Virus record (IMG/VR): IMGVR_UViG_3300027969_000074
Coordinates: 1 to 64,000 of that record
Source: a virus
DNA length: 64,000 nt
Direction: 5' to 3' (one strand)
A model generated the notes under the pieces. The model was given only the letters and a program-made list of their open reading frames with translations. It was not told the origin of the DNA and made no database searches. The position numbers and the translations under genes were made by a program. Positions 52,713 through 63,999 of the stretch are shown here, piece by piece (positions within the stretch are counted from its first letter, which is position 1; each line of letters starts with the position of its first letter).

Positions 52713-55487
52713 CTATATTAGAATTGTCTTTAACTTTTCAATTACCTGATCAGCAGTGATTAATTTTGAACATTCAAATTGACGAGGTGTACCTTTTTGA
52801 TCTGGGCACCAATTCCAATCACCAGCATTAAGCCTTAATCGGTTTGCGCAACCTGAACAAGCTCCAGTAGGTGCAGCTAATTTAATAATACCGCCATCTG
52901 GTTCATTATAGGGTTCAGTAAAACCGGAAATTTGAATACTTGGAGTATTTGTTGCCCAAGCTAACCAAGTCAATCCACTGCTGATTCCAATAAAAGCAGC
53001 GCATTCAGTTAATTCAGTAATTACTCGGTCAATTGTACCTGCTTCAAATTTAGAGGCTCCAACCGGATTACGATTTCCCATATAACCATCTTCTTCTCTA
53101 GATAAAATTACAGGTTCATAACAATTTGCAATTAACCAATCTGTAACTTCTTGCCAGCCGGTTGGATTATTCCAGTATTTGGCTTGAGCAGTACTATGAA
53201 TTCCGAGGCCTACTTTTTTCTTAACTACTGGACCAGTTGGGTGATTTATTAGAGGTTTAATCTCTTTATAGTCTAATCCTAAAATATCGGTTGCAGTTCT
53301 TTGCAATGGACCTAATTTAAAATCTCTAGGATTTTTTTCACGGTCAATATTATCTCCATTATGGAACCAACCAAGTCGGTACATTGCATGTAAATTAGTT
53401 ACCATTTGGCCAGGTTCAATGAATTCAATATTCGGATAAGTATCTTTAAATAGTTGATTCCAAAAAGTTGAACAGATCATAATACAATCGTGCTTCTTTC
53501 TAAATTCTTCAACATATGGAAACCATGCTAAGGTATCACCTAGTGCTTTTGACTCTAATGGAATATAGACACGTTTACCTTTTAGGTCAGTATTAAATAT
53601 TATTACAGGATTTCCACTTTGGTCCTTAACTTTAATTTTCCAATCTTTAAAATATTTGATTGAGCTTTTTGCCCAAGTTCCGCCGCTTAATTTTGTTGAA
53701 TAAACTAATTTGTCAGTTTCATTATCAATAAACTCTACCTGATATTTCATTGGGCTTGTAGTTTTCAATTCAACAAATGGACCGTCTACTAAATTATGAT
53801 TTACCGTAGGCAGTGGCTGAACTCCATCAATTGTTACATGATTCATTTTTGCAAAAGTTTGGAAATCCTCGCTTAAGAATTGAGTGAACGCACATTTACC
53901 TAAATAATTAACAGTTACTGTATAGCCTTTACGATATTCGCCTAATTTAATAAGTAGAAAGTCTCCCTTTTTAAGAGTCGTAAATTGTACAGTTCCATTG
54001 TATTTAATTTCAAGTAGGTAATCTTTGGTTGCAGGTTCATCATGAAATCCTGAAACAAGTTGCACATATAAATTATTAAAATCGTCTGCTGCTGTATAAA
54101 TTTGAAATTTAGCGTCATCTCTTAGGATACCGTCTCTATTCCAAACGGCTTGAGTATTTAATTCATTTGAATTTGCAATATAATTAGTTAACCAAATGTC
54201 CTTTGCGTGTTTTTCTAAATAGTGCAGGAATACTCTTTCTAACTGCCAACCGTTTGGGCGACCCATGAAATATTCCTTTTTTGTCTTTACTTCATTTATA
54301 ATATTTAGAGCAACCTCAGTTTTAATTGAGAAAATAAAGGTTGCCATAAATTTAGCTAGGTGAGTATCCTTTGCTGAACCTGAGTGGTATTCATAAATTA
54401 CTGCATCATGCTGGTGAGCTCTTTCCAAAAAAGCTTGGCGATATTGAAAAGTATCAAGCAGATTATCGTATTCCATAAAGTGAATCATCTTCTTTCCTAG
54501 ATACTTACAGAAATTAAATGCATGAGTCATTGATCTCCAAATTGCATAATCATGATGATATTCCATTTGATTATCTACTCTAGTTTTTCCAAATGTGCAC
54601 CATCTTCCGCTACCAACTGCATATTCTCCAAATTCAGAATTTAATAGCAATGGATTTTCTTTATCGTATATGTAATAGTCAACTAATTTCTGAATTTCAG
54701 GTTTGATTGCATAATGTGAAACTAATAAAATCGGAATTCCTGAAAATTCTCTAAGCTTTTTAATACATTCAATTAAGTCTGATTCTTTTTCTGGAGTATT
54801 TGGCCAAGTGTCAACAACAAAAATATCATCCGGATATTCATTCGGTCTGATTATTGAAGGTCTGTTATCCGCTGAATATTTTATATCATTTGCAATTCCA
54901 CCTTTAACCCCAAAGAAGTAAATATCTGAATGTATATTTTGCATGTCTGGATTTTGCCATTCATGATTATAGCTACCATATGAACCGTATTCAAATATTC
55001 CATCTGGAAAAGCGGTTTCAAATCCATTAATTTTTAAAAAATCGTCAGCTTCAAGATTTTTATAATAATCAGCCCATTCGCTTGATTGTTGGATTAATAG
55101 AGGAGCATCCATTTCTCCACGTCTTCTAGTTCCATGTTCAGGACGTTGACCTGATGCACAAGTAAAAATAAACATTCCACCTGGCTTTAACATACGAATT
55201 ATATTTTGAATAGTAGTTTCATAATATAGATCATGTTCAAATACTTCAGTTGAAATAATTACATCAAAATAGTCAGATGGCGCATCATATAGATTGCCTG
55301 GGGCTATTACATCAACATTAGCACCATCGCCAACATCTAATCCAATATAGTTACAATTATCAAATAGAAAACGGTTATTTCCATTAATGTCAAGCGATCC
55401 AATATCTAATACTTTTTTATTTTGGAAGTATTTTGGAAAATTTAATTTGATCTTTTTACAAAAATCTTGCTGTTCTTTATGTGCCAT
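52713..55487 (-). CDS. Multidomain: class I methyltransferase + putative GT-A-like domain + Aah/TibC-type protein O-heptosyltransferase
   Basis: LDIGSLDING..STEVFEHD; SKALGD..AWFPY; FIG.SSGL.WLAW; C..C...W.WCP....FEC Cys set. Confidence 0.8.
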   Translation of the reverse strand: MAHKEQQDFCKKIKLNFPKYFQNKKVLDIGSLDINGNNRFLFDNCNYIGLDVGDGANVDVIAPGNLYDAPSDYFDVIISTEVFEHDLYYETTIQNIIRMLKPGGMFIFTCASGQRPEHGTRRRGEMDAPLLIQQSSEWADYYKNLEADDFLKINGFETAFPDGIFEYGSYGSYNHEWQNPDMQNIHSDIYFFGVKGGIANDIKYSADNRPSIIRPNEYPDDIFVVDTWPNTPEKESDLIECIKKLREFSGIPILLVSHYAIKPEIQKLVDYYIYDKENPLLLNSEFGEYAVGSGRWCTFGKTRVDNQMEYHHDYAIWRSMTHAFNFCKYLGKKMIHFMEYDNLLDTFQYRQAFLERAHQHDAVIYEYHSGSAKDTHLAKFMATFIFSIKTEVALNIINEVKTKKEYFMGRPNGWQLERVFLHYLEKHAKDIWLTNYIANSNELNTQAVWNRDGILRDDAKFQIYTAADDFNNLYVQLVSGFHDEPATKDYLLEIKYNGTVQFTTLKKGDFLLIKLGEYRKGYTVTVNYLGKCAFTQFLSEDFQTFAKMNHVTIDGVQPLPTVNHNLVDGPFVELKTTSPMKYQVEFIDNETDKLVYSTKLSGGTWAKSSIKYFKDWKIKVKDQSGNPVIIFNTDLKGKRVYIPLESKALGDTLAWFPYVEEFRKKHDCIMICSTFWNQLFKDTYPNIEFIEPGQMVTNLHAMYRLGWFHNGDNIDREKNPRDFKLGPLQRTATDILGLDYKEIKPLINHPTGPVVKKKVGLGIHSTAQAKYWNNPTGWQEVTDWLIANCYEPVILSREEDGYMGNRNPVGASKFEAGTIDRVITELTECAAFIGISSGLTWLAWATNTPSIQISGFTEPYNEPDGGIIKLAAPTGACSGCANRLRLNAGDWNWCPDQKGTPRQFECSKLITADQVIEKLKTILI

Positions 55488-55490
55488 TTA

Positions 55491-63600: not shown

Positions 63601-63999
63601 AGAACCAGAGCTTCCGTTTGAGCCTGAAGAACCTGAAGTTCCAGAACTACCATTCGATCCGCTTGTGCCTGAAGTTCCAGAAGAACCATTTGAGCCATTA
63701 GAACCTGATGTTCCGCTTGTTCCTGAGCTTCCAGTAGCGCCCGACGTACCAGAAGTACCAGCAGATCCACTTGAACCAGAAGTTCCAGAAGTTCCTGAGC
63801 TACCATTCGAACCAGAAGTTCCGCTTGTTCCGGAAGTTCCAGAGCTTCCGCCAACTCCGCTTGTTCCAGAAGTACCAGAAGTACCTCGTGTACCTGAAGT
63901 ACCAGATGTACCAGCTAACCCATTAGCATGCCAAGAAAATGTATATTGAAGCCCATTCGCAAATTGTCCTGAGCTTGCAATTGAAGTAAGTGAAAGATT
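60661..63999 (-). CDS. Giant collagen-like (Gly-Thr-Ser/Gly-Ser-Asn) tail fiber with CBM-like module and C-terminal peptidase S74 chaperone; 5' end lies outside the window
   Basis: Hand translation of all non-repeat segments shows one open frame from 63999 (NLSLTSIASSGQF...) through YSDRSVKDN to the stop at 60661, with Gly-X-Y periodicity between them. The track reports only the last 88 aa. Confidence 0.88.
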   Translation of the reverse strand, partial: NLSLTSIASSGQFANGLQYTFSWHANGLAGTSGTSGTRGTSGTSGTSGVGGSSGTSGTSGTSGSNGSSGTSGTSGSSGSAGTSGTSGATGSSGTSGTSGSNGSNGSSGTSGTSGSNGSSGTSGSSGSNGSSGSNGSSGTSGTSGSSGSNGSSGTSGSSGSNGSSGTSGTSGSSGNTGSSGTSGTSGSSGSNGSSGTSGTSGSNGSSGSSGTSGSSGSNGSSGTSGTSGSNGSSGTSGTSGSSGSNGSSGTSGTSGSSGSNGSSGTSGTSGSSGSNGSSGTSGSSGSNGSSGTSGSNGSSGTSGTSGSSGSNGSSGTSGSSGSNGSSGTSGTSGSSGNTGSSGTSGSSGSNGSSGTSGTSGANGSSGTSGSNGSSGTSGSSGLTGSSGTSGSSGSNGSSGTSGTSGSSGSNGSSGTSGSNGSSGTSGTSGSSGSNGSSGTAGTSGSNGSSGTSGSSGSNGSSGTSGSSGSNGSSGTSGTSGSSGSNGSSGTSGTSGSNGSSGTSGTRGTSGTSGTSGTSGSSGTSGSTGASGAAISDGWDWGTPLASTKIYSNNGNLDAATTILNIAEVSLTSTNYSGVYPSIGVGTLIKTNGGIGGQIVYYRTTGVGVDNGIYWEFPVTYVSGTPWTPSSGTDIIVDISTAGVAGSSGTSGTRGTSGTSGTSGSSGSNGSSGTSGTSGSSGSNGSSGTSGTSGSSGSNGSSGTSGTSGSSGSNGSSGTSGSSGNTGSSGTSGSSGANGSSGTSGTRGTSGTSGTSFTWKGLYTATTYSVNDVVYYFGSSYICIANAAPGDIPTNAAYWSLVALAGTNGTSGTSGANGANGSSGTSGTSGANGANGSSGTSGTSGANGSSGTSGTSGANGSSGTSGTSGSTGTSGTSGVSGASGTSGTSGTSGTSGTSGTSGTSGATGANGSSGTSGTSGATGANGSSGTSGTSGATGSSGTSGANGSSGTSGGTTGTITSGTTGRLAYYSGSTTLAATNTHYDATNGRLSLGNGASPTYKFEVAGDIYATANIIAYSDRSVKDNVKTITGALDKVTSMRGVTFTRNDQEDTTRVHAGVIAQEMETVFPEVVFENANGTKAVAYPALVSVLIEAIKQQQRQIDDLKDQIKKLL
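61190..61313. repeat. 45-nt exact tandem repeat, about 2.7 copies
   Basis: CCAGTTGCACCGCTTGTTCCTGAGGTTCCACTTG... at 61190, 61235 and 61280. Confidence 0.9.
61844..62034. repeat. 90-nt exact tandem duplication
   Basis: Unit starting GAAGTTCCTGAGCTACC at 61844 and 61934. Confidence 0.9.

Follow-up and report, generated by a model that had tools for sequence, protein, structure and literature searches.

A putative virion O-glycosylation cassette adjoining proline-free collagen-like fibres in a T4-like freshwater phage

The first 64 kb of the 89,057-bp IMG/VR record IMGVR_UViG_3300027969_000074 (G000; about 33% complete according to CheckV) were analysed and are referred to as the window. At the end of the window, a gene on the minus strand encoding a collagen-like fibre (fibre A) is accompanied by a block of genes for glycosyltransferase-type and methyltransferase domains. 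This block, termed the cassette in the following, is regarded as a candidate system for glycosylation of the source phage's own fibres. Outside the fibre genes, the GC content of the window is 31–38%. The following features represent the part of fibre A located in the window:

60661–63999, minus strand: C-terminal 1112 aa of fibre A, the proposed glycan acceptor (Pfam Collagen PF01391, E 5e-107)
62401–63921, minus strand: Gly-X-Y run 1 of fibre A, 507 residues, uninterrupted
61735–62076, minus strand: Gly-X-Y run 2 of fibre A, 114 residues, uninterrupted
61138–61587, minus strand: Gly-X-Y run 3 of fibre A, 150 residues, uninterrupted, with GTS/GAN/GSS triplets
60787–60951, minus strand: Peptidase_S74 intramolecular chaperone (trimerisation, self-cleaving) at the C-terminus of fibre A (PF13884, E 4.2e-15, 56 bits versus a cut-off of 22)

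The whole open reading frame (ORF) of fibre A comprises 2654 aa and extends on the minus strand to position 68625 of the record. Within the window, its tracts consist of 257 triplets, and GTS (107), GSS (80) and GSN (34) together account for 221 of these (86%). Among the 771 tract residues, 431 are Ser or Thr and four are charged, while Pro does not occur at all. An initial annotation made from the sequence alone had described a fibre of more than 1100 aa with Gly-X-Y triplets mostly of the GTS/GSS/GSN kind and essentially no Pro, and these counts bear it out. The longest Gly-X-Y run is 507 residues in the window and 1341 residues in the whole fibre. Regarding the traits expected of PF01391 proteins, fibre A possesses the long Gly-X-Y periodicity and an adjacent trimerisation module (S74), whereas stabilising Pro/Hyp residues or Lys-Asp/Glu pairs in the X and Y positions are missing. 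The S74 intramolecular chaperone domain is typical of trimeric phage fibres.

Furthermore, the initial annotation had placed a single fibre beside the cassette. Fibre A was confirmed in this position, but it is one of four Gly-X-Y proteins encoded consecutively in the record (542, 2432, 3192 and 2654 aa, fibre A being the last). The three further proteins are located upstream of fibre A within record positions 64001–87331, beyond the window. Fibre B (3192 aa) features an N-terminal block of 'RLNSDGTEDTSFY'-type repeats, and fibre C (2432 aa) contains GID/GSD triplets and hence many Asp residues. Combined, the four proteins comprise about 2170 triplets and about 3700 Ser/Thr residues in their tracts. 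The tracts of fibres A and B each exceed 2100 residues, among which are 0–1 Pro and 5–6 charged residues.

Three additional features were observed in and near the fibre genes. Between runs 2 and 3 of fibre A (approximately 61588–61734, minus strand), an aromatic motif of the form W.G.Y....Y...D.V.Y.G..Y......P......W resembles carbohydrate-binding modules of the CBM5/12 type by eye, with no match by any tool. A partial ORF at record positions 88395–89057 (minus strand) encodes several poly-Thr tracts (TTTTTT...) of mucin-like appearance and may represent another O-glycan acceptor. Just upstream of the fibres (record 87402–88355, minus strand), a 317-aa protein with a DSD motif is encoded, for which Pfam finds nothing. 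The protein atlas groups it with viral clusters; in one of these, 10% of the members bear HPAT (hydroxyproline O-arabinosyltransferase, PF23452). As a lead, this protein is a candidate for a second, unrelated protein glycosyltransferase.

On the 3′ side of fibre A, five genes follow on the minus strand, separated by gaps of 3–10 nt except for one of 324 nt:

59971–60657, minus strand: P0002, 228 aa, beginning 3 nt past the fibre A stop codon
56836–59646, minus strand: P0003, 936 aa, three domains (GT4, GT8-like GT-A, FkbM methyltransferase)
58465–59322, minus strand: P0003 GT4 (GT-B) domain, residues ~109–394 (Glycos_transf_1 PF00534, E 2.5e-13, 50.4 bits versus 26.4; phrog_2170, E 3e-40)
57427–58446, minus strand: P0003 GT8-like GT-A domain, residues 401–740 (model pLDDT 80; DGD at 490–492)
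56899–57375, minus strand: P0003 FkbM S-adenosylmethionine (SAM) methyltransferase, residues 758–916 (TIGR01444, 88.1 bits versus a cut-off of 37.7)
56131–56826, minus strand: P0004, 231 aa, MycE/TylE-like sugar O-methyltransferase catalytic domain (Methyltransf_24 in Pfam)
55491–56123, minus strand: P0005, ~210 aa, Methyltransf_24-type methyltransferase (E 1.3e-9; the ATG at 56123 was taken as start, a TTG at 56183 is also open)
52713–55487, minus strand: P0006, 924 aa, class-I methyltransferase, GT-A-fold domain with beta-sandwich and TibC/Aah-type domain
54981–55487, minus strand: P0006 class-I SAM methyltransferase, residues 1–169 (Methyltransf_23, E 2e-9; phrog_32762, E 5e-45)
54108–54845, minus strand: P0006 GT-A/nucleotidyltransferase-fold domain, residues ~215–460, followed by a beta-sandwich to ~553 (model pLDDT 82)
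52722–53792, minus strand: P0006 BAHT-type protein O-glycosyltransferase domain, residues 566–922 (D651, T766, K770, W841, C877, C880, C894, C906)

Four genes directly downstream of the fibre had been reported in the initial annotation. The four enzyme genes are indeed present on the same strand, but five genes precede the tail-tube-like gene P0007, and the first of them, P0002, is no recognisable enzyme gene. For P0002, no family match was obtained with Pfam, phrog and curated-family profiles, and its atlas matches reached scores of at most 0.76 and TM values of at most 0.41. Homologues of P0002 come after S74 fibres in 14 of the 80 related loci introduced below. In total, the domains encoded by the four enzyme genes comprise four of the glycosyltransferase type (GT4, GT8-like, GT-A-fold, BAHT) and four SAM methyltransferases.

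Membership of the first P0003 domain in GT4 follows from the Pfam score above the cut-off and from the EX7E motif at residues 281–289 (E281...E289). The model of the middle domain of P0003 resembles glycogenin, LgtC, WbbM, GlyE and AgtA (Foldseek E-values of 2e-7 to 2e-5), with no significant sequence match in Pfam or the PDB, and its D-G-D motif is invariant. Of these proteins, GlyE is a serine-rich-repeat protein transferase and AgtA acts on Skp1. P0004 matches the catalytic domains of MycE (3SSM, E 2.1e-26, chain residues 201–393) and TylE (8IA9, E 7.8e-23); only the C-terminal half of these ~400-aa enzymes is aligned, and their N-terminal auxiliary domain is missing. For P0005, no match to PDB sequences was found. 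The model of the middle GT-A-fold domain of P0006 (P6_mid) is similar to mannosylglycerate synthase with a Z-score of 15.2, tied with IspD/GlmU. Its EYDN motif is conserved, and a Gly-rich loop of the nucleotidyltransferase type was not seen by eye. Profile searches with the P0003 and P0006 middle domains against PDB sequences yielded nothing significant, so that their folds are derived from models only. Likewise, Pfam searches of both middle domains, P0002, P0007 and the 317-aa protein returned nothing usable even at an E-value of 5. The GT4 domain, the GT-A domain with a DxD motif, the second putative glycosyltransferase domain and the four methyltransferase domains (FkbM, MycE-like, Methyltransf_24 and class I) named in the initial annotation were all recovered in this way.

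An enzyme of the Aah/TibC type with its set of Cys residues had also been proposed, and the search with the hidden Markov model of the family agrees with this assignment. TIGR04414, the model of the bacterial autotransporter heptosyltransferases (BAHT), scores 265.3 bits on P0006 versus a cut-off of 200 and is covered from position 16 to 374 of its 374 positions. The domain is colinear with residues 39–379 of TibC (PDB 4RAP, E 9e-52), for which the roles of the catalytic Asp, the phosphate and sugar contacts, the Cys finger and the adenine contact have been described (PMC4358343). In TibC, Asp-110 is catalytic, Thr-226 and Lys-230 contact the beta-phosphate and Trp-305 contacts O4 of the heptose (PMC4358343). 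These residues correspond to D651, T766, K770 and W841 of P0006 and are invariant or nearly so in 61 aligned rows. The iron-finger residues Cys-339, Cys-342, Cys-358 and Cys-370 of TibC correspond to C877, C880, C894 and C906 and are invariant in all rows. TibC Phe-368 is also conserved in P0006. Position 300 of TibC, which determines the choice between D,D- and L,D-heptose (PMC4358343), is Ser in P0006, as in Aah. By its profile score and residues, the C-terminal domain of P0006 is a real member of the BAHT family. No autotransporter was found in the cassette block, meaning that the adjacent autotransporter substrate characteristic of BAHTs is missing there. Further traits of the family are its dodecameric ring and its use of ADP-heptose to heptosylate Ser.

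In order to relate the enzyme to its genomic neighbourhood, the BAHT-branch domain was traced in 242 IMG/VR contigs, of which the best 80 loci were fetched with 10-kb flanks. A Gly-X-Y ORF, nearly always Ser/Thr-rich and Pro-poor, was present within 10 kb in 59 of the 80 loci. After dereplication by single linkage of the domain at 70% identity, 28 lineages including three GenBank phage records were retained. A Ser/Thr-rich, Pro-poor Gly-X-Y ORF was located at most 10 kb from the TibC-like gene in 23 of these lineages, and in 20 of 24 when only lineages flanked by 15 kb or more are counted. Fibre placement varies by lineage: upstream on the same strand as in the source phage, directly downstream (39–150 nt), or downstream on the opposite strand. 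As a control, 38 loci centred on the DNA ligase of the source lineage (465 kb) were inspected, and none of them contains a Gly-X-Y ORF. The initial annotation had named co-occurrence of the glycosyltransferase with (GTS)n fibres as a check, and it was encountered both in phages and, independently, in bacteria as described below. Among the large records possessing the enzyme, four of five have collagen matches, three of them adjacent and one 20–30 kb off. PAU and PTm1, the nearest cultured phages based on the terminase TerL, have neither the enzyme nor collagen.

Phage BAHT proteins occur in several architectures, namely alone (~380 aa), X-BAHT, methyltransferase-X-BAHT as in the source phage, GT4-X-BAHT and BAHT-FkbM. 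In the cultured Microcystis phage Mel-JY01 (PP395634.1), a single 1226-aa protein unites GT4, a P6_mid-like GT-A-fold domain, a P0004-like methyltransferase (Methyltransf_24) and BAHT, and its GT4 part is 57% identical to that of P0003. Two genes upstream of this fusion, an ORF of more than 1016 aa encodes (GTS/GSS/GTR)n repeats (record positions 1–3052, the record beginning inside the ORF). The same pairing of enzyme and fibre was observed in the 735-kb phage LR756501. Because the same domains are fused in other phages, the separate genes P0003 to P0006 are tied by sequence into one pathway. In the GenBank entry PP395634.1, the 1226-aa fusion is labelled only 'methyltransferase FkbM', and two 'hypothetical proteins' are annotated on the strand opposite to the collagen-like gene.

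A scan of one genome per prokaryote species resulted in 36 loci, with contig CAIWBA010000291.1 as the best match. Among cellular loci at 44–51% identity, a (GTS/GTT/GTA)n ORF is located 0–1050 nt (mostly less than 400 nt) from the enzyme gene in 19 of 24 cases, and most of the five negative loci have too little flanking sequence. Paired loci originate from Methylobacter luteus IMV-B-3098, Methylobacter sp. sgz302048, Methylococcales, Polaromonas, Burkholderiaceae, Binatia and Paceibacteria. The Methylococcales (GTS)n neighbours that were inspected comprise 270–320 aa and possess a signal peptide. In the two cultured methanotrophs M. luteus IMV-B-3098 and Methylobacter sp. sgz302048, the enzyme gene is located 56–62 nt downstream of a gene for a 267–283-aa protein in which a signal peptide is combined with (GTS/GTA/GTN)n tracts and two repeated Cys-containing domains. 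Genes around the bacterial pairs represent house-keeping functions (Mfd-type transcription-repair helicase, DEAD-box helicases, P-type ATPase). The pairing thus holds by gene neighbourhood without any phage context, and since it recurs in bacterial chromosomes in this way, it provides the strongest argument for the repeats as the acceptor.

A further 11 loci at 35–38% identity have no (GTS)n tract; their neighbours are large, and two were confirmed by Pfam as AIDA-type autotransporters. These 11 rows without a (GTS)n neighbour, referred to as the autotransporter-type group, form one clade in a quick maximum-likelihood tree (branch of 0.83, SH-aLRT 100; midpoint-rooted, omitting L148, L149, L161 and L162 with high-scoring segment pairs shorter than 300 aa). 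All phage rows and all rows with a (GTS)n neighbour fall outside this clade. Metagenomic searches retrieved 4228 homologous proteins at E ≤ 1e-20, many of them automatically named 'autotransporter strand-loop-strand O-heptosyltransferase' by JGI. The sister branch of the BAHT family comprises thousands of environmental proteins, mostly metagenomic and many on viral contigs.

Based on domain content, neighbourhood and phylogeny, the cassette probably represents a virion protein O-glycosylation system that coats the phage's own Gly-X-Y fibres with a methylated glycan. According to this proposal, glycosylation would begin in the cytoplasm of the infected cell, where the BAHT domain would link a first sugar to hydroxyl groups of Ser, and perhaps Thr, in the (GTS/GSS/GSN)n tracts. 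The GT4, GT8-like and GT-A-fold domains would lengthen the glycan, and the MycE-like, FkbM, Methyltransf_24 and class-I methyltransferases would O-methylate its sugars, giving rise to a densely glycosylated bottle-brush fibre. An oligosaccharide is predicted rather than a single heptose, because three further glycosyltransferase-type domains and four methyltransferase domains are encoded together with the BAHT domain. Collagen helices are held by Pro/Hyp or by Lys-Asp/Glu clamps, KGD representing 13% of viral collagen triplets (PMC11923368). The two stabilisers known from collagen helices, Pro and charge pairs, are both absent from the tracts, which makes the proposed glycan the likeliest source of their helix stability and solubility. 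Moreover, it could confer protease resistance or adhesion. Galactosylation of its Thr residues turns the peptide (Gly-Pro-Thr)10 from a random coil into a triple helix, and Thr-rich bacterial and viral collagens, exemplified by BclA and Riftia, have been rationalised by glycosylation (PMC11923368).

Several points weigh against this interpretation. The acceptor of TibC is a folded beta-helix, unlike a Gly-X-Y chain. The 85%-complete phage G003, which carries a BAHT-FkbM gene, has no collagen match anywhere, the fibres of the complete phage G002 are located 20–30 kb from the enzyme, and LR756504 has no collagen ORF within 20 kb. Judged from its model, the middle domain of P0006 could be a nucleotidyltransferase instead of a glycosyltransferase. 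The targets of the methyltransferases, sugar or protein, are deduced from family names only, and the case for fibre glycosylation as a whole is built from sequence and comparison. Finally, Arg-286 of TibC, which contacts N1 of adenine and is given as the basis of ADP specificity (PMC4358343), is replaced by Val-822 in P0006, and none of the heptose-pathway families GmhA, HldE domains I and II, and GmhB was found in the G000 fragment, its complete 271-kb sister genome G001, G002 (a second complete phage, checked for these four families) or Mel-JY01.

The last two points concern the donor sugar in particular. At the position of Arg-286, each of the 50 rows from the phage and (GTS)n branch has V, I, T or A, and each of the 11 rows of the autotransporter-type group has Arg. 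Furthermore, NTP_transferase was not found in G000, G001 and Mel-JY01. Because Arg-286 is replaced and heptose-pathway genes are missing in the examined phage genomes, the donor is not fixed by family membership, and the earlier suggestion that it may differ from ADP-heptose gains ground. The first sugar may be a heptose, while the nucleotide of the donor is, by its replaced contact residue, probably not read as in TibC. Two candidate clues to the donor were discarded. A 'cytidylyltransferase-like' protein of Mel-JY01, considered as an ADP-heptose enzyme, shows only a marginal CTP_transf_like match and has no homologue in the source phage. Another BAHT phage, G004, harbours a sugar island (82000–96000) with GDP-mannose 4,6-dehydratase, DegT aminotransferase, epimerases, NeuB and a GmhA-like SIS protein. 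This gene content suggests that G004 makes its own unusual sugars, and the GmhA-like gene, being part of the NeuB/DegT island, is uninformative for the source phage.

Alternatively, the cassette might glycosylate other virion proteins such as capsid, sheath, tube or nearby poly-Thr/Ser-rich proteins, the fibres being neighbours only via a shared structural module. The location of the cassette in a structural block, the enzymes without a nearby collagen ORF in G003 and LR756504, the poly-Thr protein at record 88395–89057 and the mycobacteriophage glycans on capsid and tail tube (Freeman et al. 2023, as summarised in PMC12619734) would all agree with such targets. This alternative is nevertheless considered unlikely, as the linkage to Gly-X-Y ORFs survives rearrangement across 23 of the 28 lineages and as in bacterial chromosomes, where there is no virion, the small (GTS)n protein is the only repeat-bearing neighbour. 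The same bacterial loci bear on remodelling of the host lipopolysaccharide (LPS) O-chain or capsule during infection as a block to superinfection: there, the homologues pair with a (GTS)n protein among house-keeping genes and not with LPS genes. Such remodelling is how GT8 and LPS-type genes beside the tail-fibre genes of T4-like aquatic phages (pelagimyophages) are read in PMC7029224, and the families GT4, GT8 and GT9 are common in LPS synthesis. For the cassette it appears rather improbable, given that its GT9-like domain, scoring above the curated cut-off, is specifically a member of the BAHT family, which modifies proteins, that a polyprenyl-phosphate transferase, flippase or polymerase was not seen among the profile matches of the block, and that the phage looks lytic with these genes placed among late structural genes.

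It is very improbable that the tracts are unmodified flexible spacers, neither collagen helices nor acceptors, and that the enzymes make an unrelated free or lipid-linked methylated oligosaccharide. The lack of stabilising Pro or charges in the tracts and the possible nucleotidyltransferase would fit this view; against it stand the trimerising modules such as S74 that flank the tracts, the co-occurrence and fusion evidence and the fact that BAHTs are protein transferases (PMC4358343). DNA glycosylation by the cassette was rejected, GT4, GT8-like and BAHT domains not being DNA transferase families.

Compared with known systems, fibre glycosylation by the cassette would most directly resemble TibC-TibA and Aah-AIDA-I of E. 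coli (TIGR04414; 4RAP/4RB4), in which the enzyme likewise adjoins a long repetitive surface protein. TibC and Aah are cytoplasmic and hyper-glycosylate Ser residues of the protein encoded next to them (PMC4358343). The beta-barrel and GT-B architecture, the catalytic Asp, the Thr/Lys pair, the Trp and the four-Cys finger are common to both. Differently from TibC, P0006 is phage-borne, its BAHT domain is fused behind a methyltransferase and a GT-A-fold domain, its neighbour is a Gly-X-Y fibre and not an autotransporter, Arg-286 is exchanged for Val, and it falls outside the autotransporter-type clade. Moreover, the source phage adds three glycosyltransferase-type and four methyltransferase domains.

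BclA, a protein of the Bacillus anthracis exosporium, is similar in forming a trimeric collagen-like hair with Thr-containing Gly-X-Y repeats. These repeats are reported to carry O-linked oligosaccharides capped by 2-O-methylated anthrose (PMC6222408, PMC3104494; Daubenspeck 2004 via PMC11923368). By analogy, the 2-O-methylated terminal sugar parallels the methyltransferase load of the cassette. BclA differs in that its repeats are mostly GPT, with Pro, and in its location on a bacterial spore surface instead of a virion. The BclA glycosylation enzymes are not known to be related to BAHTs. The chlorovirus PBCV-1 protein A064R, composed of two glycosyltransferase domains and a methyltransferase domain, builds a methylated glycan on the capsid protein; it belongs to a eukaryotic virus with N-linked capsid glycans, and its domains are not known to be related to those of the cassette. 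In the cuticle collagen of Riftia and in (Gly-Pro-Thr(Gal))10, an O-glycosylated hydroxy amino acid replaces hydroxyproline as stabiliser (Mann 1996; Bann 2000; both as cited in PMC11923368). There, Thr occupies the Y position next to Pro, whereas the source fibre has mostly Thr in X, Ser in Y and no Pro.

Glycosyltransferases encoded by mycobacteriophages decorate the phages' own structural proteins in the host cytoplasm (Freeman et al. 2023, via PMC12619734), as is proposed for the cassette. As given in that summary, the targets are the C-termini of capsid and tail-tube subunits in phages of Actinobacteria, and a BAHT, a collagen-like acceptor or a methyltransferase set is not part of the description. 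In the host-recognition clusters of pelagimyophages and cyanomyophages, which are T4-like and aquatic as well, many glycosyltransferases (GT8 prominent) are encoded among tail-fibre genes, and collagen repeats occur in structural proteins (PMC7029224). That work reads them as host LPS modifiers and describes no BAHT, enzyme-fibre pairing or methyltransferases.

Literature linking BAHTs to phages or to collagen-like proteins was not found, and within the summaries consulted, virion glycosylation is published for mycobacteriophages only. The cassette combines known kinds of systems, namely BAHT protein glycosylation, glycosylated collagen-like hairs and phage virion glycosylation, and the window represents one of its richest versions, in which four fibres are followed by four glycosyltransferase-type and four methyltransferase domains. 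In its broadest form, the proposal is evenly balanced: an undescribed sister branch of the BAHT family would have switched its acceptor from the autotransporter beta-helix to Gly-Ser/Thr-Ser/Thr repeats, and probably its donor, and in giant freshwater phages would start a methylated O-glycan that lets Pro-free and charge-free fibres, hundreds of nanometres long, fold and persist.

If fibre glycosylation holds true, virion glycosylation would take in receptor-binding fibres and abundant lake phages in addition to mycobacteriophages, with bearing on host range, particle stability and recognition, and phages that infect Gram-negative bacteria or cyanobacteria would have their first fibre glycosylation system. 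The BAHT family would gain a second acceptor class and perhaps a second donor. Likewise, a third, glycan-based route to collagen stability would answer how Gly-X-Y chains without proline or salt bridges form helices (PMC11923368), and the 'host recognition clusters' of aquatic T4-like phages, rich in glycosyltransferases and so far read as LPS modifiers (PMC7029224), would be re-interpreted. Two cultured systems have the pairing, Mel-JY01 (fused enzyme and (GTS)n fibre) and M. luteus IMV-B-3098 (enzyme and secreted (GTS/GTA)n protein).

Further genes of the window place the cassette in its genomic setting:

44665–46635: TerL
47624–49318: gp6-like baseplate wedge
49856–50611: gp15-like sheath stabiliser
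52085–52702, minus strand: P0007, tail-tube-like structural gene closing the block (phrog_45, E 1.9e-7)

Because of these TerL, gp6-like, gp15-like and tail-tube-like genes, the source phage is identified by gene content as a T4-like myovirus. It is a freshwater phage with a genome of roughly 270 kb. The cassette is located within the virion module, with the fibres on one side and the tail-tube, gp15-like, gp6-like and TerL genes on the other. P0007 has a match in 28 of the 80 related loci, where it shows 77–97% identity (84–97% in all but L031) and is more conserved than the cassette enzymes. Regarding TerL, the nearest cultured phages are distant, with 29–33% identity to Sphingomonas phage PAU and to Tenacibaculum and Flavobacterium jumbo phages, and a megablast search of the cassette against cultured phages gave no match. 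Near-identical DNA is present in lake and freshwater metagenomes; among the listed sequencing runs containing the stretch, there was no RNA run. Contig CAIWBA010000291.1 (L127; 254,203 bp, 33% GC), assigned to the bin of a Bacteroidetes metagenome-assembled genome, contains the whole cassette at 77–93% identity and, by this content, probably is a phage genome of the source lineage binned with a bacterium. This binning provides a weak hint that the host is a member of the Bacteroidota.

In scans for regulatory signals, the T4 late-promoter motif TATAAATA had three matches versus about 10 expected and hence no signal, counts of sigma-70 promoters and terminators were not above those of shuffled sequences, and the terminator scan found no terminator-like site on the minus strand of the fibre-enzyme block. 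Between the baseplate and sheath-stabiliser genes (window positions 49415–49781, plus strand), a phage-encoded transfer-messenger RNA was detected; its tag peptide is GNTTFWSLVNQGVNTPVTEELLAA according to ARAGORN, and its score with Rfam RF00023 is 113.7 bits versus a gathering score of 47.

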